From positions 1 through 64,000 of IMG/VR virus record IMGVR_UViG_3300035520_000529: a DNA stretch of 64,000 nucleotides. One strand, given 5' to 3'. The DNA is from a virus (Duplodnaviria > Caudoviricetes). How positions within the stretch are numbered: position 1 is the stretch's first letter; the number at the start of each line of letters is the position of its first letter. The translations under genes and the position numbers were made by a program. The notes beneath the pieces are model-generated. The model was not told the origin of the DNA, did no database searches, and saw only the letters and a program-made list of their open reading frames with translations. This document shows, one piece after another, positions 1 through 16,413 of this stretch.

Positions 1-81
1 AACACATATCCAGTTAGGCTTTAACTCTAATATGAGAGTTCAACTCTACACATAGGATTGAATTTTGATATTAGAGTTAAA

Positions 82-114
82 GGAATGCACAGAACTCCTA
101 TAAGCTGTGCAGAA
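82..114 (+). promoter_or_regulatory. Conserved leader hairpin, copy 1
   Basis: GGAA-T-GCACAG-AACTCCTATAAG-CTGTGC-AGAA; stem ends 16 nt before ATG 127. Confidence 0.8.
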
Positions 115-126
115 TTGAGGTTATTT

Positions 127-669
127 ATGCATTACATATCTATTACTGACAAAGCAAAAATGCTACGTTCTGAAATCAAAAGCAAACTAGGACTCAACTG
201 CCGTGAGGTTAGTGTCACTACTAGTGGCGGTGGTTATGATTCCAGTATCCACGTGTATTTAAAGACCCTTAAAGCTATGACTCACTATCAAGAGGTTGAA
301 AAGTTAGCTTCTAAACTTGAACATATCGACTATGACCCTTACTGTGGTGAGGTTCTATGTGGTGGCAATACCTACGTAAATGTGGGTTGTGACCGCTCTG
401 TGCTAAGAGAATTTAGCACTAAATATCTTGAACTTGCTACTAAAGTTTACAACGAACTTACTGAGGAAACTGGTGGCAAATGTGTTCTAACTATCAATGG
501 TGTTGACTTTCATTACATTCCTAAAAGCATTTCTCATTGTTACATTAATGGTATGTGCTTTATAGACACTAATGAACGCTCTCACAAGATTAGAAGAATT
601 GCTAATTCTGTAGAAGATATAGCATTTTCTATGGGTCAGTTTGAGCTTTGCGGATATTTCTTCTGCTAA
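127..669 (+). CDS. Hypothetical early phage protein (possibly LPD-type polyvalent-associated domain)
   Basis: ORF 58..669; start moved to ATG 127 behind GAGG RBS and leader hairpin copy 1. Confidence 0.6.
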   Translation: MHYISITDKAKMLRSEIKSKLGLNCREVSVTTSGGGYDSSIHVYLKTLKAMTHYQEVEKLASKLEHIDYDPYCGEVLCGGNTYVNVGCDRSVLREFSTKYLELATKVYNELTEETGGKCVLTINGVDFHYIPKSISHCYINGMCFIDTNERSHKIRRIANSVEDIAFSMGQFELCGYFFC

Positions 670-695
670 GATTTTGATTTGTAAATTTGATTTTT

Positions 696-722
696 AACTT
701 GTACCCAACTCGGGTACAAGTT
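696..722. repeat. 27-bp palindrome, candidate parS copy 1
   Basis: AACTTGTACCC-AACTC-GGGTACAAGTT; related copies at 33930, 38473, 45619. Confidence 0.7.
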
Positions 723-730
723 CTTTAACT

Positions 731-1123
731 ATGAAAGGATTTGATTGTATGAAAAAGATTACTAAAAAAGAATTTATCGCTAAAATGGTAGCAAATGAGA
801 CCTACTTTGTGAATGTTCATAAGTATATTAACAAGCCTATTCAATCTAAACTTGAGTTTATCAACAACGAAATAGTTGAACACAAGCCTGACCTTAGCGT
901 TATGAAAACACGTACTTGTGTACAACGCTCTGCTTTTCTAGAGTTTTCCATGGGTAGTAGACTCTACTTTAATCAACAAGCAGATTACTCTTACTATGAG
1001 TTTGAAATCGATTCTCAAGAGTACCTAATCATGGTAGAAACTACTGACAATTCTAAAATTAGCACTAACTCTTGGGATGACGCTATAAGCTACTTTATGG
1101 TTTACGCTGTGAAAGGAGAATAG
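731..1123 (+). CDS. Hypothetical protein
   Basis: ORF; likely start ATG 749 after GAAAGGA. Confidence 0.65.
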   Translation: MKGFDCMKKITKKEFIAKMVANETYFVNVHKYINKPIQSKLEFINNEIVEHKPDLSVMKTRTCVQRSAFLEFSMGSRLYFNQQADYSYYEFEIDSQEYLIMVETTDNSKISTNSWDDAISYFMVYAVKGE

Positions 1124-1125
1124 TC

Positions 1126-1356
1126 ATGAGAAGATACAACATTGCACCATGCAACATTAACAAGGAGTTAGAAACCAAAACTGACTATCTAGTTTGGTTG
1201 CTATCTCAAACTATTAACACTATAAATAGCCTACCCATTGACGGCAGAGAACGTGGAGACTTAGTCTCCATGTACATGGCTAACCTACTAAATGGTATTT
1301 CCGATGACGATATACCTCGTCAAATCTATGACCAAACTATTGGACGTAGCATATAA
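1126..1356 (+). CDS. Hypothetical protein
   Basis: ORF with AAAGGAG RBS, coupled to upstream stop. Confidence 0.6.
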   Translation: MRRYNIAPCNINKELETKTDYLVWLLSQTINTINSLPIDGRERGDLVSMYMANLLNGISDDDIPRQIYDQTIGRSI

Positions 1357-1372
1357 GAAAGGAGTTTTTATT

Positions 1373-1954
1373 ATGACTAATACTAATGTTATCACTTTAA
1401 ACGCTATGGTGGACTATCTAAAGTCCACCTTAACTGAACCTACTCAGCAAGAGTTCACATCCGCTGATACATCCGTAAACAGAAACCGCCTACCTAAAGT
1501 ATTTTCTGCTATCAAGAGTTGGAAAGCAGATTCCATAAATCTTGACCTCGGTGGTGGTAAGTTTGACAACGCTACTGAGTACCTATACTCTCAATACGGC
1601 TGTACAAACCTCATATTTGATAGGTTTAACCGCTCTGTTGATTGGAATACTCAAATACTAAATTACGTCACACAAGTGGGTGGTGCTGACACCCTAACTT
1701 GTGCTAACGTTCTTAACGTCATTGCTGAAAGTGAAATCCGTTTGGAGGTTATCGCTCAAGCTTACGCTCTACTAAAAAGTGACGGCATTGCGTACTTTCA
1801 AATCTATGAGGGTAACGGCTCTGGAGTAGGTTCTCAAACTAAGATTGATTGTTGGCAAAACAACTTAAAGGCTAATGAGTATATATCCGAATTGGAAACG
1901 TATTTCAATATCGAAAAAGTCTCCAATAAGATTATCGTTTGCACTAAGAAATAG
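1373..1954 (+). CDS. Class I SAM-dependent methyltransferase, probably DNA-directed
   Basis: NLDLGGGKFD SAM motif, CANVLNVI, YFQIYEG; RBS GAAAGGAG before ATG 1373. Confidence 0.65.
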   Translation: MTNTNVITLNAMVDYLKSTLTEPTQQEFTSADTSVNRNRLPKVFSAIKSWKADSINLDLGGGKFDNATEYLYSQYGCTNLIFDRFNRSVDWNTQILNYVTQVGGADTLTCANVLNVIAESEIRLEVIAQAYALLKSDGIAYFQIYEGNGSGVGSQTKIDCWQNNLKANEYISELETYFNIEKVSNKIIVCTKK

Positions 1955-1968
1955 TTGGAGATGTAATT

Positions 1969-2553
1969 ATGAACATTAAAGAAGAAATTAAAAAATACAA
2001 TGAGGGTCTTACTCATACCATAGACATTGACGATATTCACACTATATTCAATTCTATTTTAGAAATATTCAAGGAATATCTTCCTATGCCCGAAAACATA
2101 TATCTTAGTGATAAACCACTAAATTCCGCTACTAGACTTGGTCAATGCAAAAAAGAAGTTTGGACTATGCCTAATGGTAAAGTGGTAAATTGTGTGTACA
2201 CCATATACGTTAATAAGTGTTATATTGGCGCTCCAATTACTAAAGAGGTATTTTTTGATTTGGTAAACGTTATTGGTCACGAACTACTACACACCATTGT
2301 GCAATCTCATGATGCTAACTTTACAAAGTTAGCTAATATGCTAAATCAGTATCTAGGTTTTAAAATTGAAGCACACTATACACCATCCGAAACTACAAAA
2401 CTCCTAAATACAGTTAAGCCTAAATACGAAATTAGGTGTTCAAAGTGCAATCAACTTTTGGGTTGGAAATATCACAAATGCAAAATGATTAGCCACAGTC
2501 AAGATTATACTTCTCAATGCTGTTACGCTGATATTAAAATTATAAACCTATAA
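1969..2553 (+). CDS. SprT-like zinc metallopeptidase
   Basis: LGQC, HELLH, HD..F and C-terminal YxxxCxxC zinc ribbon. Confidence 0.75.
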   Translation: MNIKEEIKKYNEGLTHTIDIDDIHTIFNSILEIFKEYLPMPENIYLSDKPLNSATRLGQCKKEVWTMPNGKVVNCVYTIYVNKCYIGAPITKEVFFDLVNVIGHELLHTIVQSHDANFTKLANMLNQYLGFKIEAHYTPSETTKLLNTVKPKYEIRCSKCNQLLGWKYHKCKMISHSQDYTSQCCYADIKIINL

Positions 2554-2564
2554 ATTAAATTCAA

Positions 2565-2597
2565 GGAACGTGGAGAACTCCTATAAACTCCACAGAA
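2565..2597 (+). promoter_or_regulatory. Conserved leader hairpin, copy 2
   Basis: GGAA-C-GTGGAG-AACTCCTATAAA-CTCCAC-AGAA; 17 nt before ATG 2611. Confidence 0.8.
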
Positions 2598-2610
2598 AGT
2601 GAGTATTACT

Positions 2611-2913
2611 ATGAAAATTACAGGTATTAAAAAGGCAGTAAGCGACTATAAAAGAGCAAATGCTGGTGGTTATTATAGCCCTAGTTATGGTAGAATGATG
2701 TTAAACCGCTCTACTGGAGAAGTATGGACAGATGAATTCTACTGTGTAGGTCATACTGATTGGAACAAATATGATGACCCTGCAATCATCAACATAGTTA
2801 CAGCTATGAATAATATAGCTTGTGATGCAGTTACAGTAACTATGCAATCAATAAAAAAAATTGCTGTAAAACTTTGTGAAGAATACGCTAAGAATAAAAC
2901 TAAAAATTCTTAG
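2611..2913 (+). CDS. Hypothetical protein
   Basis: ORF 2599..2913; ATG 2611 preferred. Confidence 0.65.
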   Translation: MKITGIKKAVSDYKRANAGGYYSPSYGRMMLNRSTGEVWTDEFYCVGHTDWNKYDDPAIINIVTAMNNIACDAVTVTMQSIKKIAVKLCEEYAKNKTKNS

Positions 2914-2928
2914 GATATTCAATAATCA

Positions 2929-2996
2929 ACTCGTTGGAGCGAGTATAAAAAGTCCGTTAGGCTCTAAGCGTTCCGCCCAATTGGGCGGAGGTCGGA
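2929..2996 (+). ncRNA. Pistol self-cleaving ribozyme A
   Basis: P1 ACUCG/CGAGU with loop UUGGAG; linker AUAAAAAG; P2 UCCG/CGGA; UUAGG; pseudoknot strand CUCUAA; GCGU; P3 UCCGCCC/GGGCGGA; GGU (predicted cut G2991/U2992). Confidence 0.9.
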
Positions 2997-3004
2997 AAAT
3001 TAAA

Positions 3005-3037
3005 GGAAAGCACAGAACTCCTTTAAACTGTGCAGAA
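3005..3037 (+). promoter_or_regulatory. Conserved leader hairpin, copy 3
   Basis: GGAA-A-GCACAG-AACTCCTTTAAA-CTGTGC-AGAA; 17 nt before ATG 3051. Confidence 0.8.
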
Positions 3038-3050
3038 AGTGAGTATCGTT

Positions 3051-3497
3051 ATGAATAAGGAAACTAAAGTTATCAATGCTATCAAGGTTTGCACTGATGG
3101 TAATATGTACCCAGTGAAGTTTAAGGAAAATTCCCTCGCTGATATGTACTCTTTGCTAAACTGTTCTAACATTGAGATTGTACACGCTATGCGTTTGAAT
3201 GGCTCTTTCTGCTTAGTCTGTGATGGAGAAGCACTATTGAAAGATTCTCCTCAAATTAACCTTTATGCAAGTTATCTATATGGCTCTGAACAACATAGGA
3301 ACTACATTTATGGAGATGTGCTAATCTGTAAAGAATACAACTTCGATGAGGATTTCGAGGACGATGAAGATGAATCCGACTTCCAATCTATGACACAAGA
3401 TGAGATTGATTACTATTTTCTACAGAAACTTTTCCTAGTTGGTAAGTTAAAAAGTTTTGCTGATGATACTGAACGTTGGCTAAAAGGACTCTTATAA
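3051..3497 (+). CDS. DUF3846-like protein
   Basis: L..MY.LLNC..IE.V, CDGE.LLK...IN..AS.LY, IYGDVLI pattern. Confidence 0.6.
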   Translation: MNKETKVINAIKVCTDGNMYPVKFKENSLADMYSLLNCSNIEIVHAMRLNGSFCLVCDGEALLKDSPQINLYASYLYGSEQHRNYIYGDVLICKEYNFDEDFEDDEDESDFQSMTQDEIDYYFLQKLFLVGKLKSFADDTERWLKGLL

Positions 3498-3511
3498 TCG
3501 CTAGTTTTTAG

Positions 3512-3540
3512 TTGACAAAATAGTATAAATTTACTATAAT
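3512..3540 (+). promoter_or_regulatory. Sigma-A promoter
   Basis: TTGACA-17-TATAAT. Confidence 0.8.
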
Positions 3541-3565
3541 ATAGCTATCAAAGGAGAGGTTTTTT

Positions 3566-4027
3566 ATGAAAAAAGTTGGATATTGTAAGTACGTTCACAA
3601 GTCAAACTTAGCTGAACTTTTAAATTCAGTTTCGGATTTAGAAAGAGAACCCATTAAAGAGCTGATTAGTCAGCATAGCACATACTGGAATTTTGAGGTG
3701 GTTAAGTACGATTCTAAGACTAAAAATCTCTCCTTAATTCAGTCTCTAAATTGGAATACTGCTAATGAGCCAACTGTTGGTGACAGTTTAATAATCAACA
3801 TAGTTACGTTGAAAATCTCTATTTCAAAAATGAAAACCCGTGAACAGATTTACCATCAAAAAGAACTTTTCGTGTCCGAAAACTACAGTGGTTTTGACGT
3901 TCAAAAGGCTAAGGCTAGGACTCAACTTTGGAAGTCAAAAATACAAAATCTTAGCCAACACAAAACTAGAATGGGTTATCGTTGGTACTGGAATGAATTG
4001 CTAGATATGTATAATATTGAGAAATAG
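3566..4027 (+). CDS. Protein resembling the accessory domain of phosphorothioation-associated methyltransferases (TIGR04096-like)
   Basis: YVHKS, VVKYD, EP.VGDS, IYHQKELFV..Y, RMG...W pattern; recognised from memory. Confidence 0.5.
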   Translation: MKKVGYCKYVHKSNLAELLNSVSDLEREPIKELISQHSTYWNFEVVKYDSKTKNLSLIQSLNWNTANEPTVGDSLIINIVTLKISISKMKTREQIYHQKELFVSENYSGFDVQKAKARTQLWKSKIQNLSQHKTRMGYRWYWNELLDMYNIEK

Positions 4028-4041
4028 TTTCCATTTTGCAC

Positions 4042-4070
4042 TTGATTTTTGTGCAAATTTATGGTACAAT
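4042..4070 (+). promoter_or_regulatory. Sigma-A promoter with TTTGCAC/GTGCAAA inverted repeat around the -35
   Basis: TTGATT-17-TACAAT, extended -10 TG. Confidence 0.6.
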
Positions 4071-4091
4071 ATTCTTAAATTTAACAGTTTT

Positions 4092-4124
4092 GGAACGTGG
4101 AGAACTCCTATAAACTCCACAGAA
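4092..4124 (+). promoter_or_regulatory. Conserved leader hairpin, copy 4
   Basis: GGAA-C-GTGGAG-AACTCCTATAAA-CTCCAC-AGAA; 17 nt before ATG 4138. Confidence 0.8.
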
Positions 4125-4137
4125 AAGGAGAATTGCC

Positions 4138-4455
4138 ATGAAAGAATTATTCGTTGTTGATGTGGATAACGGCGGTAGTATGTGGATTCCAGACGGCTCG
4201 GACATCTACGGAGACCTTATAGAAAACTATATCGAAGCTGAAAATGAGGATGCTGTCTTTAAGTACCTCGTGGACTACTTCATTAAGGGCAGTTCTGAGG
4301 TCGACTGGGGAGAAGATGGTATGCCCGATTATAAGGTCGACTACGCTAAAAAACGCATAGATTGGTGCGAAGATGAGTATCAATACCACTACATTTTTGA
4401 GATTGAACCCGTCTTTGAAGCAGACGAAAATATCCCTATAACTACCATCGACTAG
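4138..4455 (+). CDS. Small acidic hypothetical protein
   Basis: AAGGAG RBS; very D/E-rich (DNA-mimic-like composition). Confidence 0.7.
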   Translation: MKELFVVDVDNGGSMWIPDGSDIYGDLIENYIEAENEDAVFKYLVDYFIKGSSEVDWGEDGMPDYKVDYAKKRIDWCEDEYQYHYIFEIEPVFEADENIPITTID

Positions 4456-4519
4456 GCGATGTAAAATAGTCCATTAAGCCTAGTGCGTTACTCCATCCGC
4501 AGGGGTGGAGTAGGTTGGA
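4446..4519 (+). ncRNA. Pistol self-cleaving ribozyme B
   Basis: P1 CAUCG/CGAUG with loop ACUAGG; UAAAAUAG; P2 UCCA/UGGA; UUAAG; pseudoknot strand CCUAGU; GCGU; P3 UACUCCAUCC/GGGUGGAGUA; GGU (predicted cut G4514/U4515). Confidence 0.9.
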
Positions 4520-4566
4520 AAGCATATTTTTAACTCTATTTTACAAATTTTAAGGAGGTCTTTTTT

Positions 4567-6450
4567 ATGAAATTGAAAGACAAATTGAAGACTTTTTGGA
4601 TGAAAGCAATTCTCATATTTTGTTATATCCAAGGAGGCATTATAGTCATAATAGGTGGGTTGTTAACGGCAATCCTCCCTCTTGCACTGAATTTGGCAGG
4701 GTTTCCACTGGCTATTCACTGGATGGCAGACAACGTTTTTATTGGTGGAATTAAGGCTATTTTATATGTAGTTTTCATTGGAGTGGGTTCTGTTAAGTTC
4801 TTTTTAAACTTTGGTGAATCTGGAACTCCACCTTTTTGGAAGTATGTTGTTGGTGGCATTTGCAGTATATACGATAAACCCGTCAACAAATTGGAATATG
4901 AACTTCAAGTGCATAAAATTAGAGAAAAGAATAAACTCGATTATGACAAAGACTATGTAAATCCAAATAAAAAATTATCATTACTTGACAAAATAAAAAT
5001 ACATAAAAATAAAGAGATTTTTAACAGAGTATATGATAACTTTTTCCTAAGTTATGACAGCTATTTTCACATTCAGTGGGATAGGTTTGGCGACTCTAAC
5101 TCATGGTACAGATGTATGAATTACAAAGATTACAGACTTTCTTTGATTAAAAATCCATACGTTTCAGCAACCAAAAAATACAAAGAAAATAAGAAGTTGC
5201 TATTTATGGGTAAGTGTTATGGACTCGTTTCATCGCCACAAAACCCTTACAAGGATAACAAAGTTCATTCACAATACGATTTTGTTTTCTATGACCTTTA
5301 TCAAGAAAGTAAGCGTAAGCCAAACGTCTTCGCACAAAGCATTGAAAATAATGTTGATGGTGTACTATACGAGATTTTGGCAATGTTGCAAATAATATCT
5401 TGTAAAGATTTTGACGAGTATTTTTACTACAATTTACATTTTCCAATTACAAAAGATAATGTATTTGAACAAGCCGTTAATCAACAAATGGAAAATTTGC
5501 TCTTTTGGATGTATATTGACCAAGCAATGACTGTGGATTTTATTGACATTCATACGCTCCATATTGAAGATAGGTTCATTTTAATGATTAATCAGCTACA
5601 CAAAATGCACTTACTTTTCACTAACAATAACTTCATATCTTCTCAAAACTCGTTCGATTGCGACTTCCTTTATAACGAATTAGAAATTGGCGAGTACGAG
5701 CAATCCCTAATTGCTCTCGTTGAAAAAGTGCCTAAGATTGAGGAAAGCATAAAGAACCTACCTCACAAAGATAACGTCCCTTTGATGTTAGAAAAGTCGC
5801 AAATATGCTCTGATGTGTGGCTTGAATGGTATCAAAGCAAACGAAAAGACGAACTCTCCGAAAATAGTTTGTACCATGAAATTGCCGAAAGGTTCACATC
5901 TTCAATCTTTGACAAAAGTACATTTCTCACTGCCATCGTTGTAGAAGATACGAAAACTAAAAAAAGACAATTATATTTTGTTGGCGAAAAGATTCTTTTT
6001 ATGTTGGATTCAGATGAAAATAATAATGTTTTATATGATGAAATTCATTATACTATGGATACTTATCTTTATGAGCAAACCTCACACGAACGAGATTTGA
6101 ACACTATAAACGATGACCAAAAATTGAGAGAGTTTATTTTTAAGAAAGAAGTTCCAAAGCATATCTATAGCGACTTTAAAAGGGTTTGTACTTTTTTCAA
6201 CCCAAAGTATGTAAAGTTTATACATAACTTGGATAATCTAAACTATATGATTTCTAACGAGTATAAAGCAATTTGCCGTTATGAATTTCAAATGAGTTAT
6301 TCACGTTTCTTAGAAGATACGCAAAAAGAATTTAAGGAAACCATTGAAAGGTTTAGAGAAAAGTGTTTGAAAATGTATGCTAATTATGAAGAAATATATT
6401 TAGAAATTTACAATGAGGATAAAAACCAAAATGTAAACTCTGTAAATTAA
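4567..6450 (+). CDS. Hypothetical membrane-anchored protein
   Basis: AAGGAGG RBS; 2-3 hydrophobic N-terminal helices followed by a large soluble domain. Confidence 0.7.
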   Translation: MKLKDKLKTFWMKAILIFCYIQGGIIVIIGGLLTAILPLALNLAGFPLAIHWMADNVFIGGIKAILYVVFIGVGSVKFFLNFGESGTPPFWKYVVGGICSIYDKPVNKLEYELQVHKIREKNKLDYDKDYVNPNKKLSLLDKIKIHKNKEIFNRVYDNFFLSYDSYFHIQWDRFGDSNSWYRCMNYKDYRLSLIKNPYVSATKKYKENKKLLFMGKCYGLVSSPQNPYKDNKVHSQYDFVFYDLYQESKRKPNVFAQSIENNVDGVLYEILAMLQIISCKDFDEYFYYNLHFPITKDNVFEQAVNQQMENLLFWMYIDQAMTVDFIDIHTLHIEDRFILMINQLHKMHLLFTNNNFISSQNSFDCDFLYNELEIGEYEQSLIALVEKVPKIEESIKNLPHKDNVPLMLEKSQICSDVWLEWYQSKRKDELSENSLYHEIAERFTSSIFDKSTFLTAIVVEDTKTKKRQLYFVGEKILFMLDSDENNNVLYDEIHYTMDTYLYEQTSHERDLNTINDDQKLREFIFKKEVPKHIYSDFKRVCTFFNPKYVKFIHNLDNLNYMISNEYKAICRYEFQMSYSRFLEDTQKEFKETIERFREKCLKMYANYEEIYLEIYNEDKNQNVNSVN

Positions 6451-6464
6451 TAGGAGGTATTATC

Positions 6465-7337
6465 ATGAAAGAAATTAAAATGACTGTTATGGGAAACGTT
6501 GCTCTTGAGGAAACTTTTGAAAAGACACAAGAGCCTACTATCGAACCACAAAGCACAAATGTACGTCAGTTGAAGAGCAACTATATACATCGTAAATCCG
6601 ATGGTGCAGAGTACATCAAGCCTACAGCAGGTGACCCTATTAGGTCTAAGGCGGACTTAAAAGCCATCTACAAGTACTTTGAAGATGGCAGAAGTTCACA
6701 GATAGAAACTCTTAATGCACGTAATTACGCAATCTTTATCCTAGGAATATCCACTGGATTGAGAATCTCCGACTTGCTAAAAATTAAAGTCAGAGACATA
6801 ATCGACCTTAGAAAGCTTAACGCAGTTTTGAAGTCCAAACCTAAATCAAAAATCACTAAAGAGGACGATATTTTCGTGGATAGAATTTACATCTGCGAAC
6901 AGAAGACAGGTAAAATTAACAAACCAGTAATGTCAAAAAGGTGTAAAGTTTTGATATTTGACTATTTAAAGTTGGTAAAAAAAGAAGTAAAGCTTAGCTT
7001 TACTGACTACCTCTGGGTGGCTGGTGGAAATCGCACGAGCGTTAAGGTTGTGAGTAAGCCAATCGCCATGCAGAACTACTACGATGTGCTCAAAAAAATC
7101 TCAAACGAGATTGAGTTTGAAACTCCAACCCACCTATCTACGCACAGTATGAGGAAAACCTTTGGTTATTGGCTCTTCAAAAACGCATCTTCTCAAGCCG
7201 AAACTTTGGCGATTTTGCAAGAGTTGTTCAACCACAGCAACCAAAGGGTGACCCTAAGGTACATCGGTATCACTGAGGACACCAAGCTCAAAACCCTTGC
7301 TGAGTTCAGTAATCTGCTCGATGACATTTTAGAATAG
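6465..7337 (+). CDS. Tyrosine recombinase (integrase/resolvase)
   Basis: TGLRISD, EQKTGK, HSMRKT, FNHS, TLRYIG: complete R-K-H-R-H-Y set. Confidence 0.92.
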   Translation: MKEIKMTVMGNVALEETFEKTQEPTIEPQSTNVRQLKSNYIHRKSDGAEYIKPTAGDPIRSKADLKAIYKYFEDGRSSQIETLNARNYAIFILGISTGLRISDLLKIKVRDIIDLRKLNAVLKSKPKSKITKEDDIFVDRIYICEQKTGKINKPVMSKRCKVLIFDYLKLVKKEVKLSFTDYLWVAGGNRTSVKVVSKPIAMQNYYDVLKKISNEIEFETPTHLSTHSMRKTFGYWLFKNASSQAETLAILQELFNHSNQRVTLRYIGITEDTKLKTLAEFSNLLDDILE

Positions 7338-8052: not shown

Positions 8053-9945
8053 ATGAGTGATGTAATCGTTAATTTTGGTTCACATATAGTTCCATGTTCT
8101 AAGCTTGATGAAAACTTCTATTTGGGTAACATAAAGCTTAGAGATATTATCAAGTTAAAGACGTGTTTTCGTGATTTTAACAAGTATCCAATAAAAAAGA
8201 CTGAGGTTAAAACTCACTGTGAAAAGATACTTGAATGTGTAAAAAAAGGTACATTAAGACCTAATACTTTAAGCTTTCAAGCTTCCGAATTTTACTTCCA
8301 AGCTGAGAACGTTCTGCTCGTAAACAAGCTTGAGGTTGACTATCAAAAGTTGGTGCTTTTAAAAGTGTCTGAAGAGTGTGAATCCACACAAATATGTGTT
8401 CCCTTTGTATTAGAGTTGTATGATAAATCCAAAGCCTATGAGAGTATCGACAGTATCATAAATAGCAAAGATTTACAATTATTGAATGAAAAGACAACCA
8501 TGTTCAATGCCCTATTATCGAAGTCATACCTACTTACCGAATTTTACACTATGCTAAAAAACAGGTATGATTACAACATCGAAAACCAAGTAGTGGAAAT
8601 ATTGACATACTACCTCTCCCAGACAGATTTAACGAGAGAAACCCTTTATAACTACATAGATACGTTATTAGACAGTGAAACTTTCAAAGAGTATTTTTCA
8701 AATTGCAATCACTTAAACAATCCATCTATTACAAATTTGGAAAGTCTCACAAATAACGTAATTCTGTTTGTTTTTAAGTTTGTAGCTGTTAGCAAAGAAA
8801 ATTCAAAAAGCAACTTGGAGTTCATAACATCGCAGTTTATGGATGAAATCTTTAAAGAGGTTGACTATCCGAAGTCTAAAGTTGAAATTGCAAACATTGT
8901 GAAAGATATTTGCAATAACGAATCAGCGATTTTGAAAAGTTTAACAAATAAGAATCTCTATAACTCACACCAAAAAATCGAATTTATAGAAGACTCTTAT
9001 AGGCAAAATCCCGATAAGTTTTACAACTGCGTAATTGACCAAACTAAGTCCTTTGAGGAGATTTCTCGTCATGAAAAGAAACTCCAAAAGGATTTACTAG
9101 AGTTTTCTATTGAGGAGATTGTGGAACTCTTAAAGAACTTTAACTCTAGCATTACGATGGTTGCAAAGTACAAAACACTGATAAGAAAGTATTTTGAATG
9201 GGGTAAAAATCATAGGCTAATCGAACCCTCCAAGGTTATGGAACTTAATAATTTGAAAAAAGAAAAGTTTGTAAACTCACAAAATAGAAACGTTTGTAAG
9301 TTTTTCTTAACCGAAAATGACTACGCTTCAGCAATGGAGAGGATGTATCACCACTCGAACAACCTAAAAGTTAAGCAGTTTATAATTTCATTTTTCTTTA
9401 ATTCTGTTGGAATCTCTCAAGAGAACATCCGCACAGTTACGTTGTTTAACTATAAGGACATTCTAGAAAAAGGTCTCGCTTTGGAAATTAGAGGAGAAGT
9501 TTTTGAAATGAAAACCATTTTAAACTCTGCTTTGAGAATATGTGAATACTTTATTGAACATGACCGCAATGAGGACTATCGCATTAAGGATACCGACTTT
9601 TTGATATGTTCTCACGGAGTGAACAACAGCACAAAAAACACGCATTTTCCAAGCGTTTTGGTCGATTTAAACCAAAGCCACGTGATTCCTTACACAATCT
9701 CACCTAAAACGATAACTCCTAGTAACCTTGAACAATGTGTCAAATTCATCGCATTTGAGCAGTATCTAATCAAAAATAATTTGGATGTTCATTCCACAAA
9801 CAGTGATATTAGGCGAGAAATCTCTTTGACCTACAAAGAATTTTTTAATGTGAAAGAGTCCGTTTCAAACGCTTTAGTGTTCTCTGGGTACGTTAATGCG
9901 AGGTTTGTAAACGAGTTTCTCGATTTTAAAAATAGTGTTGATTAA
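8053..9945 (+). CDS. Putative lysogeny regulator: N-terminal YopQ/DndB-like domain fused to a YopR/MrpR-like degenerate recombinase fold
   Basis: N-term FYLG.I...DI...G.L.PNTLS; from aa ~302 LYN..QK.EF...E....KDL.EFS.EEI..LL..FN.S...Y...I.KYF.W; no catalytic RHRY. Confidence 0.5.
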   Translation: MSDVIVNFGSHIVPCSKLDENFYLGNIKLRDIIKLKTCFRDFNKYPIKKTEVKTHCEKILECVKKGTLRPNTLSFQASEFYFQAENVLLVNKLEVDYQKLVLLKVSEECESTQICVPFVLELYDKSKAYESIDSIINSKDLQLLNEKTTMFNALLSKSYLLTEFYTMLKNRYDYNIENQVVEILTYYLSQTDLTRETLYNYIDTLLDSETFKEYFSNCNHLNNPSITNLESLTNNVILFVFKFVAVSKENSKSNLEFITSQFMDEIFKEVDYPKSKVEIANIVKDICNNESAILKSLTNKNLYNSHQKIEFIEDSYRQNPDKFYNCVIDQTKSFEEISRHEKKLQKDLLEFSIEEIVELLKNFNSSITMVAKYKTLIRKYFEWGKNHRLIEPSKVMELNNLKKEKFVNSQNRNVCKFFLTENDYASAMERMYHHSNNLKVKQFIISFFFNSVGISQENIRTVTLFNYKDILEKGLALEIRGEVFEMKTILNSALRICEYFIEHDRNEDYRIKDTDFLICSHGVNNSTKNTHFPSVLVDLNQSHVIPYTISPKTITPSNLEQCVKFIAFEQYLIKNNLDVHSTNSDIRREISLTYKEFFNVKESVSNALVFSGYVNARFVNEFLDFKNSVD

Positions 9946-13357: not shown

Positions 13358-13413
13358 TATAACATAAGAAGTAAGGGAAAATCACAACCAAACTTAGAAA
13401 GGAAGTTTTAATT

Positions 13414-14193
13414 ATGAATGAAATCATTATCAACAACAACGGAGGTACACTAACTGTATCCAGTATGCAAGTGGCAGAAAACTTTGAGAAAGACCATAAG
13501 AATATTCTAAGAGATATTGAGGAACTCAAAAAGGGTTGGCTCAAAATTGAGCAGACCCCCCAAGAACCACACAATATCGAAAGATTCTTCATCGAAAGCA
13601 CTTATGTACATCCACAAAATAAGCAGACCTACAAATGCTACGAACTAACTCGTGATGGCTTTAGCCTACTAGTAATGGGCTTCACTGGTAAAAAAGCACT
13701 AGAATGGAAACTAAAGTACATAGAAGCTTTCAACCTCATGGAGCAGAAACTCAAAGAGCAAAGCACAAAGATAGATAGCTACATGATTAATGACCCAATC
13801 CAAAGGGCAAATCGTTGGATTGAGGAGTATCAAGAAAAGGTAGCCTTACAAGAAAAGGTCACAGAACAAGCACCTAAAGTCGAGTACCATGATAAGGTTC
13901 TAAATCAAGCAAACCTCATAACACCAACAACTATTGCCAAAGACATGGGTTTAAAATCAGCAAGTGAACTTAACAAACTCTTACATAACAAAGGAGTAAT
14001 CTATAAGCAAGGCAACGTATGGCATCCATATGCACAGTACGAATGGTTACTCACCGAAAACTACATAGATTATAAATCCTACGATGATAAAGAGGTTGCT
14101 CCACAGTTACGTTGGACTGAAAAAGGTCGCAAATGGTTAATGGAAAATTTTTTAAACGAATATCGCTATAGTCAATTAGCATTTGGAGTTTAA
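13414..14193 (+). CDS. Rha-family antirepressor with KilA-C/ANT domain
   Basis: VSS..VAENFEK.HKNILRDI, TRDGFSLLVMGFTG; C-term PKVEYHD.VL...T.IAKD.G. Confidence 0.9.
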   Translation: MNEIIINNNGGTLTVSSMQVAENFEKDHKNILRDIEELKKGWLKIEQTPQEPHNIERFFIESTYVHPQNKQTYKCYELTRDGFSLLVMGFTGKKALEWKLKYIEAFNLMEQKLKEQSTKIDSYMINDPIQRANRWIEEYQEKVALQEKVTEQAPKVEYHDKVLNQANLITPTTIAKDMGLKSASELNKLLHNKGVIYKQGNVWHPYAQYEWLLTENYIDYKSYDDKEVAPQLRWTEKGRKWLMENFLNEYRYSQLAFGV

Positions 14194-14216
14194 GTTTTAG
14201 AAAGGAAGTTTTAATT

Positions 14217-15008
14217 ATGAATGAGTACATGAATGATTACAAAGTGTTAGTAAAAATTGACTACACAAAAGAAAACCCTACTGTTATGGGCAGAGAACTA
14301 CATACCGCACTAGAGATTAAGACAGCTTACAAGGACTGGTTTCCTAGAATGATAGCCTATGGATTCACTGAAAATGTGGACTATCAAGTAAGGCTCATTT
14401 TTGAGCCTAACTCAAATGGCGGAAAACAAAGCTACACAGACCACGAAATAACCCTAGACATGGCTAAGGAAATCTGTATGCTTCAACGTTCAGAAAAAGG
14501 AAAACAGTTCCGCCAATACTTTATCGAGGTTGAAAAACAGTGGAGAGCTTCTACAAAAATAGATGAGAGAACCTTAGCAATCTCAAAGATTATCAACGCT
14601 AAGAATGAACTAGAACAAGCTTATGCTTTGAGAGATTATACTGCTTTGGTTGAAAAACCACTCTTAAAAACTATCGAAGAACAAACACCTAAGGTTGAGT
14701 ATCATGACAACGTGTTAAACACTCCAAACCTCATAACACCAACAACTATAGCTAAGGATATGGGTTTAAAGTCAGCAAACGAACTTAATAAGATTTTGTA
14801 TGCTAAAGGAGTAATCTATAAGCAAGGTAACGTATGGCATCCATATTCCAACTATGAATGGTTATTAACTGAAAAGTATATGGACTACAAGTCTTATGAC
14901 GAGCAGAACGTTCCACCTCAACTTAGATGGACTGAAAAGGGTCGCAAGTGGTTAATGGAAGATTTTCTACTTGAATACAATAAAAGCCAATTAGCATTTG
15001 GAGTTTAG
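14217..15008 (+). CDS. AntA/AntB antirepressor with KilA-C/ANT domain
   Basis: GRELH..LEIKT.YKDWF, TLDMAKEICM..RSEKG; same C-terminal domain as 13414 gene. Confidence 0.9.
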   Translation: MNEYMNDYKVLVKIDYTKENPTVMGRELHTALEIKTAYKDWFPRMIAYGFTENVDYQVRLIFEPNSNGGKQSYTDHEITLDMAKEICMLQRSEKGKQFRQYFIEVEKQWRASTKIDERTLAISKIINAKNELEQAYALRDYTALVEKPLLKTIEEQTPKVEYHDNVLNTPNLITPTTIAKDMGLKSANELNKILYAKGVIYKQGNVWHPYSNYEWLLTEKYMDYKSYDEQNVPPQLRWTEKGRKWLMEDFLLEYNKSQLAFGV

Positions 15009-15041
15009 AAAACATTGAGAATTTTTTTCTTAAACGAAAAA

Positions 15042-15061
15042 TTCCCACTATAAAGTGGGAA
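15042..15061. terminator. Hairpin between convergent genes
   Basis: TTCCCACT/AGTGGGAA. Confidence 0.55.
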
Positions 15062-15394
15062 CTAAGATTCTTTATTTTTCATCTCATCAAGAGCAAGTAT
15101 AATTTTAGCACGTTCAACCAAAGGCAAATTGTTTATCAAGTTTAACAATTCTTCATCGTCTTTTGCTATCACCTTTGACTTTGTGGTTATTAAGTTTGGT
15201 TCATCGGTTCTTCCTAGTAGATAATCTACGGAGCAGTTAAATCGTTCAGCTAACTTTAGTAAAGTCTCTCCGTTAGGAATAGCACCATTTTTCCACTTAG
15301 TACAAGTAGCACTTGATATTCCTATTTCTTTTGCAATGGTATTAGGTTTTGTGTGATTTTTCTCACAAAGCTTATAGAACGTGTTCCAAAACAT
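15062..15394 (-). CDS. XRE-family HTH repressor 2
   Basis: AKEIGIS....KWKNG..P....L.KLA..FNCSVDYLLG; ATG 15394 after AAAGGAGG. Confidence 0.88.
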   Translation of the reverse strand: MFWNTFYKLCEKNHTKPNTIAKEIGISSATCTKWKNGAIPNGETLLKLAERFNCSVDYLLGRTDEPNLITTKSKVIAKDDEELLNLINNLPLVERAKIILALDEMKNKES

Positions 15395-15491
15395 AGTAAT
15401 GCCTCCTTTGGTTATAACATACAATTATTTTAACTGAATATGGTATTTATACAGTTGAATAAACAAACTTACTAAAATTAGATTTTTAATA

Positions 15492-15586
15492 TTGACTTTC
15501 TAATTAAAGTAAGATATAATGTAACCATATCAAAGAAATGAATCATTTCACACATATATTATAACATAAAATCGTTGAAAAGTCAA
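15492..15586. promoter_or_regulatory. Face-to-face promoter switch 2
   Basis: + TTGACT(15492)-17-TATAAT; - TTGACT(15586)-17-TATAAT(15563). Confidence 0.7.
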
Positions 15587-15648
15587 CAAAGGCTAAAAAA
15601 ATAGCCTTAAAATATATTTATCTTAAACTCAGAAAGGAAGTTTTGATT

Positions 15649-16413
15649 ATGAATGAATTAACAGTAATTGAAAAGAACAACGAGAGGGTGCTATTAACCT
15701 CTCAAATAGCTGAAAGCTATGGCACTACACCTAAGGTTATATCTTATAACTTTAACAGCAATAAGCAAAGATACGTGGAGGGTAAACACTATTATTGCCT
15801 TGAAAATGAGGAAAAGCGTGAGTTTTGTAACCGTCTTGAAATTCAAGATGGTGCAAAAGCTAGTAAACTTTACCTTTGGACTGAAAAGGGAGCATTGCTT
15901 CACGCTAAAAGTCTAGGCACTGATAAGGCATGGGAAGTCTACGAATGCTTAGTAGATAGTTATTTCCAAAAGGAAACTAGAAAGTCTATGTCCGAATTAG
16001 AAATGTTAGCTAAGGTTGTGAACGAAGCAATCAAGCTTGAAAAGAGAGTTGACCTCCTTGAGAGCAACCAAAAACAAGCCACTCAAAAAATTGATAAAGC
16101 AATAGACGTTTTCTCATCTCCTACTGAATCCGCATGGCATGATGGAATCATTAAGCAATTCAAAAAGATTTGCTACAACAATGACTTGAACTATCGTACC
16201 GAGTTAAATAACTTATACGCTGAACTTGAAACTCAACTAGGTTGTGACTTAGCGATCCGCCAACGCAACAAGGAAAAGCGTTTGAAACTAGCTGGTTGCA
16301 CAGTTAAACAAATCAAGGATAATACTACCAAAATCATGCTAATAGAAGACGATGACTCTCTAAGACTTGCCTTTGAAAACATCTTTAGAAAGTTCCAAGT
16401 TAGGTATATTTAG
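15649..16413 (+). CDS. ORF6N-domain antirepressor
   Basis: RVLLT.QIAE.YG, EGKHY, LYLWTEKGA..HAKSL.TD.AW. Confidence 0.88.
   Translation: MNELTVIEKNNERVLLTSQIAESYGTTPKVISYNFNSNKQRYVEGKHYYCLENEEKREFCNRLEIQDGAKASKLYLWTEKGALLHAKSLGTDKAWEVYECLVDSYFQKETRKSMSELEMLAKVVNEAIKLEKRVDLLESNQKQATQKIDKAIDVFSSPTESAWHDGIIKQFKKICYNNDLNYRTELNNLYAELETQLGCDLAIRQRNKEKRLKLAGCTVKQIKDNTTKIMLIEDDDSLRLAFENIFRKFQVRYI

Follow-up and report, generated by a model that had tools for sequence, protein, structure and literature searches.

The first 64 kb (hereafter the window) of a linear phage contig of 108,209 bp (Caudoviricetes; IMG/VR record IMGVR_UViG_3300035520_000529, estimated to be 64% complete) carry a short leader cassette that is repeated in front of four early genes. 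Each copy is ∼55 nt long, contains a small hairpin and ends at a start codon. All four copies are on the plus strand, and their parts, with the scores assigned by a covariance model described below, are as follows.

77-129, plus strand: copy 1; purine tract with GGAA at 82-85; stem 87-92/105-110 of the GCACAG type; loop 93-104; AGAA 111-114; GAGG 117-120; ATG at 127; 70.2 bits.
2560-2613, plus strand: copy 2; GGAA at 2565-2568; stem 2570-2575/2588-2593 of the GTGGAG type; loop 2576-2587; AGAA 2594-2597; GAG 2601-2603; ATG at 2611; 84.8 bits.
3000-3053, plus strand: copy 3; GGAA at 3005-3008; stem 3010-3015/3028-3033 of the GCACAG type; loop 3016-3027 with U at the variable position; AGAA 3034-3037; GAG 3041-3043; ATG at 3051, which starts a DUF3846 gene; 80.3 bits.
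4087-4140, plus strand: copy 4; GGAA at 4092-4095; stem 4097-4102/4115-4120 of the GTGGAG type; loop 4103-4114; AGAA 4121-4124; GGAG 4127-4130; ATG at 4138; 74.4 bits.

The cassette thus consists of a purine tract with GGAA, one free base, one strand of a 6-bp stem, a 12-nt loop, the return strand, AGAA, the ribosome-binding site and ATG. An initial annotation of this DNA had reported the four copies, and all of them lie where it placed them, with AGAA directly after every stem. It had also described a fixed distance to the start codon; we measured 16 nt from the end of the stem to ATG in copy 1 and 17 nt in copies 2-4. The consensus that it gave for the repeat is present as described, but it was too short, as the similarity continues through the ribosome-binding site to the start codon. 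A repeat finder returned a 38-nt and a 52-nt family spanning the upstream purine tract, the ribosome-binding site and the first codons. The near-invariant block stops 12-13 nt before ATG, and the Shine-Dalgarno core that follows it varies (GAGG, GAG, GGAG).

The covariance model, built from nine cassette copies, scored the four copies at 70-85 bits versus 14.6 bits for the next best site in the 108-kb contig, and it detected no further or degenerate copies in the contig or in its relatives. Similarly, a scripted pattern scan of the contig found no combination of loop, stem and flanks besides the four copies. We estimate that chance alone would yield about 0.03 exact occurrences of the loop pattern in 64 kb.

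In this phage, the stem occurs in two versions, GCACAG/CUGUGC and GUGGAG/CUCCAC, which are three double-changed pairs apart. These are the three compensatory pairs of the initial annotation, and each of them is indeed changed on both sides. A third version, GCAGAG/CTCTGC, with one more double-changed pair, was found in the copy 1 orthologue of a ∼90% identical relative. At least three double changes are needed to link the three versions, and intermediates with a mismatch or a wobble pair were not seen. Across the nine aligned copies, pairing of the stem is complete (54 of 54 cells, 100%), three of its six pairs are changed on both sides, and the loop is invariant at 10 of 12 positions, apart from a 1-nt insertion in one relative (L120). 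None of 500 shuffles matched the observed pairing or covariation score, and controls in which the partner strand was slid paired in 24-51% only. The energy of the hairpin is −6.3 to −6.5 kcal/mol in all stem versions; because it is equal across them, this suggests that a set, modest stability is maintained.

To the complete pairing and the double changes may be added the independent double change in the relative, the position of the copies in the 5′ leaders of unrelated genes, and the lack of a match in Rfam. Together, these observations support the view, already expressed in the initial annotation, that the cassette is a structured RNA element and not a plain DNA repeat. The cassette is real and under selection for its fold. 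As possible mechanisms, the initial annotation had put forward a pseudoknot or switch, a protein operator or an RNase J block; it had neither read AGAA as part of a Shine-Dalgarno sequence nor related the copies to upstream features that may make 5′ ends.

The initial annotation could not match the hairpin to a known family, and neither could we: no family in Rfam 15 fits the hairpins, whether at gathering thresholds in the whole window or at E up to 10 in bases 1-5000. These scans, which cover the RAGATH motifs and preQ1-I, returned two Pistol matches and otherwise chance-level matches only. The single one of the latter that falls on a hairpin is OLE at 4045-4121 over copy 4 (11.9 bits versus a gathering threshold of 50; E of 5.5).

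The four cassette-led proteins are mutually unrelated and not paralogues. Paralogy of the downstream genes is therefore rejected as the cause of the shared leader, and the cassette must have been kept or spread independently of its genes. Pfam and PHROGs scans of the neighboring proteins yielded no informative family except DUF3846, and no candidate RNA-binding protein emerged from them. As a lead only, the product of gene 127-669 resembles LPD29 (feature score 0.92, TM 0.67), a domain of phage and plasmid polyvalent proteins. The LPD29-like, DUF3846 and methyltransferase-like genes suggest an early counter-defense block, and the genes led by the cassette, with an acidic small protein and the neighboring methyltransferase-like gene counted among them, look like stand-alone early counter-defense modules. 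No sigma-70 region 2 or CsrA genes were found in the contig, with its estimated completeness of 64%. The same contig gave no match to a T7-like RNA polymerase, a family for which the control gave no signal either.

A small number of contigs with 85-89% identical early proteins were retrieved through a protein index only. L126 and L128, which come from one sample and show ∼90% DNA identity, have orthologues of all four copies, and the orthologous leaders show no higher conservation than the flanking genes. L120-L125 are mutually identical in this region and carry a single copy, with a 13-nt loop, before the DUF3846 gene. In L127, which is more distantly related (its DUF3846 protein is 56% identical), the neighboring genes are kept and the cassette was not found. 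When viral, metagenome and species-genome collections were scanned for exact patterns, in one case with a loop of variable length, all matches were at chance level and lacked the stem; the cassette family therefore appears to be rare and narrow. Searches of viral contigs and GenBank phages with single proteins produced no useful close relatives. The nearest cultured relatives of the DNA polymerase are those of Bacillota phages (39% identity), and the host is probably a member of Bacillota.

Upstream of the copies and downstream of the last gene that they lead, we found the following features.

19-80, plus strand: long near-perfect hairpin of ∼28 bp, reaching as far as the purine tract of copy 1 (z −6.1).
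2929-2996, plus strand: pistol ribozyme A (Rfam covariance match, 72.7 bits).
4042-4070, plus strand: sigma-70-type promoter with an extended −10 (TG) and a predicted start near 4077.
4446-4519, plus strand: pistol ribozyme B (60.9 bits), after the gene led by copy 4 and overlapping the stop codon of this gene (4138-4455).

Three of the four copies thus stand directly after features predicted to make RNA 5′ ends, namely the long hairpin (copy 1), a pistol cut (copy 3) and a sigma-70 promoter (copy 4). The long hairpin is also present in L126, with wobble-preserving changes (positions 2380-2480 of that contig, z −6.3), and it is possibly a site for a double-strand RNase. In Rfam, it has no family and only chance microRNA-like matches. 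Similar hairpins are the sites at which T7 early RNA is processed by a double-strand RNase. In L126, a second hairpin of 14 bp lies further 5′ of the long one.

Pistols A and B have differing, compensating helices, and pistol A is 100% identical in L128. Presumably, as judged from the known pistol consensus, pistol A is cut between G2991 and U2992; its predicted 3′ product begins 13 nt before GGAA of copy 3. The predicted start at ∼4077 is about 15 nt before GGAA of copy 4, and the promoter is conserved in L128, where it is nearer to the consensus. Since copy 4 is ∼20 nt downstream of this promoter, it is part of the 5′ leader of its gene. For copy 2, which starts 12 nt past the stop codon of gene 1969-2553, neither a good promoter nor an evident structure was found upstream.

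No intact cassette was detected after pistol B with the covariance model. The stretch that follows this ribozyme (4513-4566) begins GGAAAGCA like copy 3 and contains the loop-like AACTCTATTTTA, but has no stem; it may be a decayed fifth cassette or a coincidence. As the model gives no match there, the GGAAAGCA stretch is not supported as a fifth copy.

Promoters of the same type occur elsewhere in the early region. A perfect sigma-70 consensus promoter (12/12) at 3512-3540 precedes gene 3566-4027; L128 lacks it and has a short spacer instead, so that promoter content differs between phages that are ∼90% identical. At 3700-18400 of L120, strong sigma-70 promoters that are nearly identical and have a conserved spacer of two types precede more than ten early genes, one promoter per gene, and a purine-rich tract follows each of these promoters, close to the predicted start.

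The cassette loop has a core, CUCCU plus U/A and U, that is similar to the 3′ tail of 16S rRNA. The upstream (A)AAGGA tract (AAAGGA in copies 1 and 3, AAGGA in copy 2, and UGGA in copy 4) is a second sequence complementary to this tail. Together with GAG, GAGG or GGAG downstream of it, the invariant AGAA may represent an extended but interrupted Shine-Dalgarno sequence. We take this sequence to be complementary to a 16S 3′ end of the Bacillus type. The core Shine-Dalgarno of copies 2 and 3 is GAG only, the weakest among the eleven early genes that we read.

Consequently, the loop has potential partners on both sides of the hairpin. With the upstream tract, 4-8 bp are possible (−3.3 to −8.5 kcal/mol), and with the Shine-Dalgarno region, up to 6 bp, at least 4 bp in every copy except copy 1 (−2.8 to −8.2 kcal/mol). 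The minimum-energy fold of copy 4 contains the pairing of the loop with the Shine-Dalgarno sequence. If limited to 4-5 bp, both pairings would be compatible with H-type pseudoknots with workable loop lengths. Among the pairings proposed in the initial annotation, those of 8 bp in copy 3 and with AGGAG in copy 4 do exist as complementarity, but the full 8-bp helix of copy 3 excludes the hairpin: on steric reasoning, the two cannot coexist, because a single base is left to cross the helix. Elsewhere in the contig, no antisense partner of the loop was found, ordinary ribosome-binding sites aside. A conserved leader peptide was considered and rejected, as short GUG frames exist in copies of the GTGGAG type only, and an in-frame ATG at 85 exists in copy 1 only and is missing from its orthologue.

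The explanation that we favor, although tentatively, is that the cassette is a shared RNA operator beside the ribosome-binding site, in which the loop would imitate the 16S tail and form its pairs in cis. The 6-bp hairpin of fixed stability would present the 12-nt loop with its 16S-tail-like core. The loop would pair with the upstream tract or with the downstream extended Shine-Dalgarno, forming a small H-type pseudoknot, and this pairing would set the ease with which the 30S subunit is loaded. Four messages would thereby get one common translational setting, and the folded 5′ region could also protect the ends made by the promoter, the pistol cut or the long hairpin.

Several observations weigh against this explanation. 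Any Shine-Dalgarno sequence is by definition complementary to a loop that is similar to the anti-Shine-Dalgarno, and the energies of the duplexes between the loop and its flanks are clearly better than those with shuffled flanks in some copies only. GGA and UCC never vary, and covariation therefore neither supports nor refutes their pairing. In copy 4, UGGA is present instead of AGGA, and in copy 1 the upstream tract is mostly locked inside the long hairpin. When whole leaders are folded, their stability does not exceed that of shuffled sequences (z −0.97 to +0.90). The stem covariation comes from only about three effectively independent stem versions in relatives that are ∼90% identical, and the pattern scans did not find the cassette family outside one narrow phage lineage.

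Among known elements, the start-associated sequences (SAS) and extended SAS (ESAS) of Cluster K mycobacteriophages (Pope et al., 2011; PMC3203893) come nearest to the cassette in kind. They, too, are short, keep a single orientation and recur at a constant short distance upstream of the starts of some non-structural, unrelated phage genes, and, as for the cassette, a role in translation initiation has been proposed for them and the reader is not known (PMC3203893). However, SAS is an asymmetric 13-nt motif that contains the AGGAG Shine-Dalgarno and lies 3-7 nt from the start, as compared to 16-17 nt for the cassette stem, and ESAS has conserved imperfect arms of 17 bp and a variable spacer (PMC3203893), whereas the cassette has variable 6-bp arms and a fixed 12-nt loop. 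Moreover, there is no sequence similarity, and the host group is different. With the defining motif, position and arms all differing, we do not assign the cassette to SAS/ESAS.

A less probable explanation, which still deserves serious weight, is that a single trans-acting RNA-binding protein, of the phage or the host, docks on the hairpin and would repress or activate the four messages jointly. Operator hairpins are used in this way by T4 RegA and by the coat proteins of RNA phages. A stem that changes freely while keeping its pairing, combined with an invariant loop and invariant flanks, is the classic signature of an element read by a protein; also, the position beside the ribosome-binding site is fixed, and conservation extends over the entire 12-nt loop, beyond the CUCCU core. 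On the other hand, no candidate RNA-binding protein was identified among the neighbors and no CsrA in the contig, and no gene was found to be confined to the carriers of the cassette, as L127 has the neighboring genes without it. The comparison with the translational operator hairpins, such as T4 RegA targets and the MS2/PP7 coat-protein operators, is similarly divided. Like the cassette, these are small hairpins at ribosome-binding sites, in which the sequence of the loop matters and that of the stem does not, and several early messages are involved. Unlike them, the cassette has no candidate binder, ends before the Shine-Dalgarno rather than covering the start codon, and has a much larger loop of 12 nt.

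It is rather unlikely that the cassette is mainly a stabilizer of 5′ ends, in which the Shine-Dalgarno-like tract and the hairpin would block 5′-to-3′ decay by RNase J. Such an effect would count most for the 5′-OH ends made by ribozymes, and RNase J1 is known to degrade the 5′-OH product of the glmS ribozyme (PMC3997798). The location of three of the four copies 13-15 nt from, or directly after, the predicted end makers is consistent with this explanation, as are the purine tracts just after the strong promoters of other L120 early leaders and the Bacillota phages among which the DNA polymerase has its nearest cultured relatives. Against it, an invariant 12-nt loop is unnecessary for such a role, the hairpin is weak (−6.4 kcal/mol) and is preceded by ∼18 nt at the 5′ end, no end maker is evident upstream of copy 2, and the message that follows pistol B has no cassette. 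The STAB-SD and 5′ stem-loop stabilizers of Bacillota mRNAs (Agaisse and Lereclus, 1996, as cited in PMC3997798) combine a Shine-Dalgarno-like purine tract with structure near the 5′ end of the message, upstream of the real ribosome-binding site, and in this the cassette, with its predicted 5′ ends, would be similar to them. In the cassette, however, complementarity of the tract to the 16S tail is limited to ∼6 nt, the weak hairpin is not terminal, and an invariant loop is no feature of stabilizers.

The two pistols resemble the ribozyme-punctuated phage operons, in which self-cleaving ribozymes are located between single small phage genes (Perreault et al., 2011; PMC3088659), and here the cassette is the leader of the 3′ product of one pistol. 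Still, the cassette itself is not a member of a ribozyme family, and three of the four copies have no ribozyme.

It is improbable, in our estimation, that the cassette is a two-state switch, with the 16S-mimicking loop alternating between the true Shine-Dalgarno sequence and the upstream tract, which would serve as its decoy. The choice of state would depend on 5′ processing (the pistol cut, cleavage of the long hairpin or the transcription start) or on a small ligand or factor. A known leader of comparable architecture is the preQ1-I riboswitch (RF00522), a small H-type pseudoknot that hides the Shine-Dalgarno. In both, the hairpin is followed by an A-rich tail and by Shine-Dalgarno bases with which the loop can pair; the cassette differs in that it has no match to this family even at E up to 10, no covariation for the pairing and no evidence for a ligand. 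If the cassette were such a switch, ribozyme cleavage would directly license the translation of the downstream early gene; pistol ribozymes would then have a definite function in nature, and the cassette would represent a new class of tiny regulatory RNAs.

Recombination between cassettes has left a trace in L120. The leader of this contig is chimeric: its upstream flank and stem are of the copy 2 type, and its 3′ end and gene are of the copy 3 type. The gene upstream of the leader is the methyltransferase-like gene (91% identity), and the gene that follows copy 2 and pistol A are both missing. This is what recombination between two cassettes would produce. In addition, the four copies look mosaic relative to one another in the alignment. 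Hence, the cassette has also served as a recombination patch.

We consider it equally doubtful, nevertheless, that the cassette is only a mobile regulatory or homology patch without a dedicated RNA function, the repeat being kept by template-switch repair of DNA. The L120 chimera, the mosaic look of the copies and the variation of gene content between relatives fit this possibility, and template switching in DNA can in principle keep inverted repeats perfect. Yet three perfectly paired, equally stable stems with a fixed loop and flanks are hard to obtain without selection on the fold, a 6-bp arm is generally considered short for template-switch correction, and use in recombination does not exclude an RNA role. 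A precedent for such patches is provided by the PeSLs of T4-type phages (Arbiol et al., 2010, PMC2839356; Comeau et al., 2014, PMC4122927), mobile regulatory cassettes with repeated stem-loops before small early orphan genes, where recombination between copies removes or adds genes and thus shuffles them (PMC2839356). The L120 chimera of copies 2 and 3 agrees with this behavior. The units differ, as a PeSL includes a sigma-70 promoter and a GC-rich terminator hairpin, and the cassette contains neither and is joined to the ribosome-binding site: the one promoter near a copy (copy 4) lies outside the repeated unit of 38-52 nt, copies 2 and 3 have none within it, and the 6-bp stem (−6.4 kcal/mol) with its 12-nt loop is not followed by a U run.

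A signal at the level of DNA, either a promoter of a modified or phage RNA polymerase with TATAAA of the loop as −10 or an operator of a dimeric DNA-binding protein or recombinase, is very improbable, because, in spite of the −10-like TATAAA or TTTAAA in the loop, the inverted repeats typical of operators and the integrase-like genes nearby, the ∼12 nt from GGAA to the −10-like hexamer are at odds with sigma-70 spacing, the incomplete contig yielded neither an RNA polymerase nor a sigma gene, a promoter right after a ribozyme (copy 3) or 20 nt past a good promoter (copy 4) is implausible, and a dimeric protein would read the arms, which vary, rather than the asymmetric spacer, which is fixed. 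Two other known hairpins were rejected. The N4-type hairpin promoter, used by the virion RNA polymerase, has a stem of 5-7 bp and a 3-nt loop, as opposed to the 12-nt loop of the cassette, and the lambda nut site, with its 5-bp stem, GNRA-like pentaloop, preceding boxA and position independent of the start codon, is, no search for an N-like protein having been made, judged incompatible with this loop, with the fixed spacing to ATG and with the similarity that extends into the ribosome-binding site.

Sets of early genes are frequently marked in phages by repeated start-associated elements (SAS/ESAS, PeSL). To our knowledge, none of these elements has a proven reader or mechanism, and we know of no settled natural role for pistol ribozymes. 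The cassette offers a small and clean case, with a 24-nt hairpin, three stem versions, four genes and pistol ribozymes adjoining. If its loop is truly a mimic of the 16S tail, the cassette would be a compact and portable part for translation control that links ribozyme cutting to ribosome loading; if not, it would be one more lineage-specific leader motif.

Other features of the early region include a stem-loop of 9-10 bp at 696-722. It follows gene 127-669 and could serve as a weak terminator or protect the 3′ end; conservation of the region in L126 is 95%. Gene 749-1123 (124 aa) is absent from L126, which in turn has an extra 154-aa gene before its counterpart of gene 1969-2553. Such gene indels are typical of a plastic early region. 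Further downstream, three paralogous genes of ∼260 aa at 13390-16413, two of which have 78% DNA identity, have a common 33-nt leader; unlike the hairpin cassette, this shared leader is explained by gene duplication. Just after the early block, we found a 290-aa tyrosine-recombinase-like gene (6465-7337) and a gene for a 630-aa protein with an integrase-family match (8053-9945). Finally, L120 carries a RAGATH-18 RNA at 2394-2468 (76.6 bits), which follows an IS605 OrfB/TnpB-like gene and adjoins a resolvase gene.

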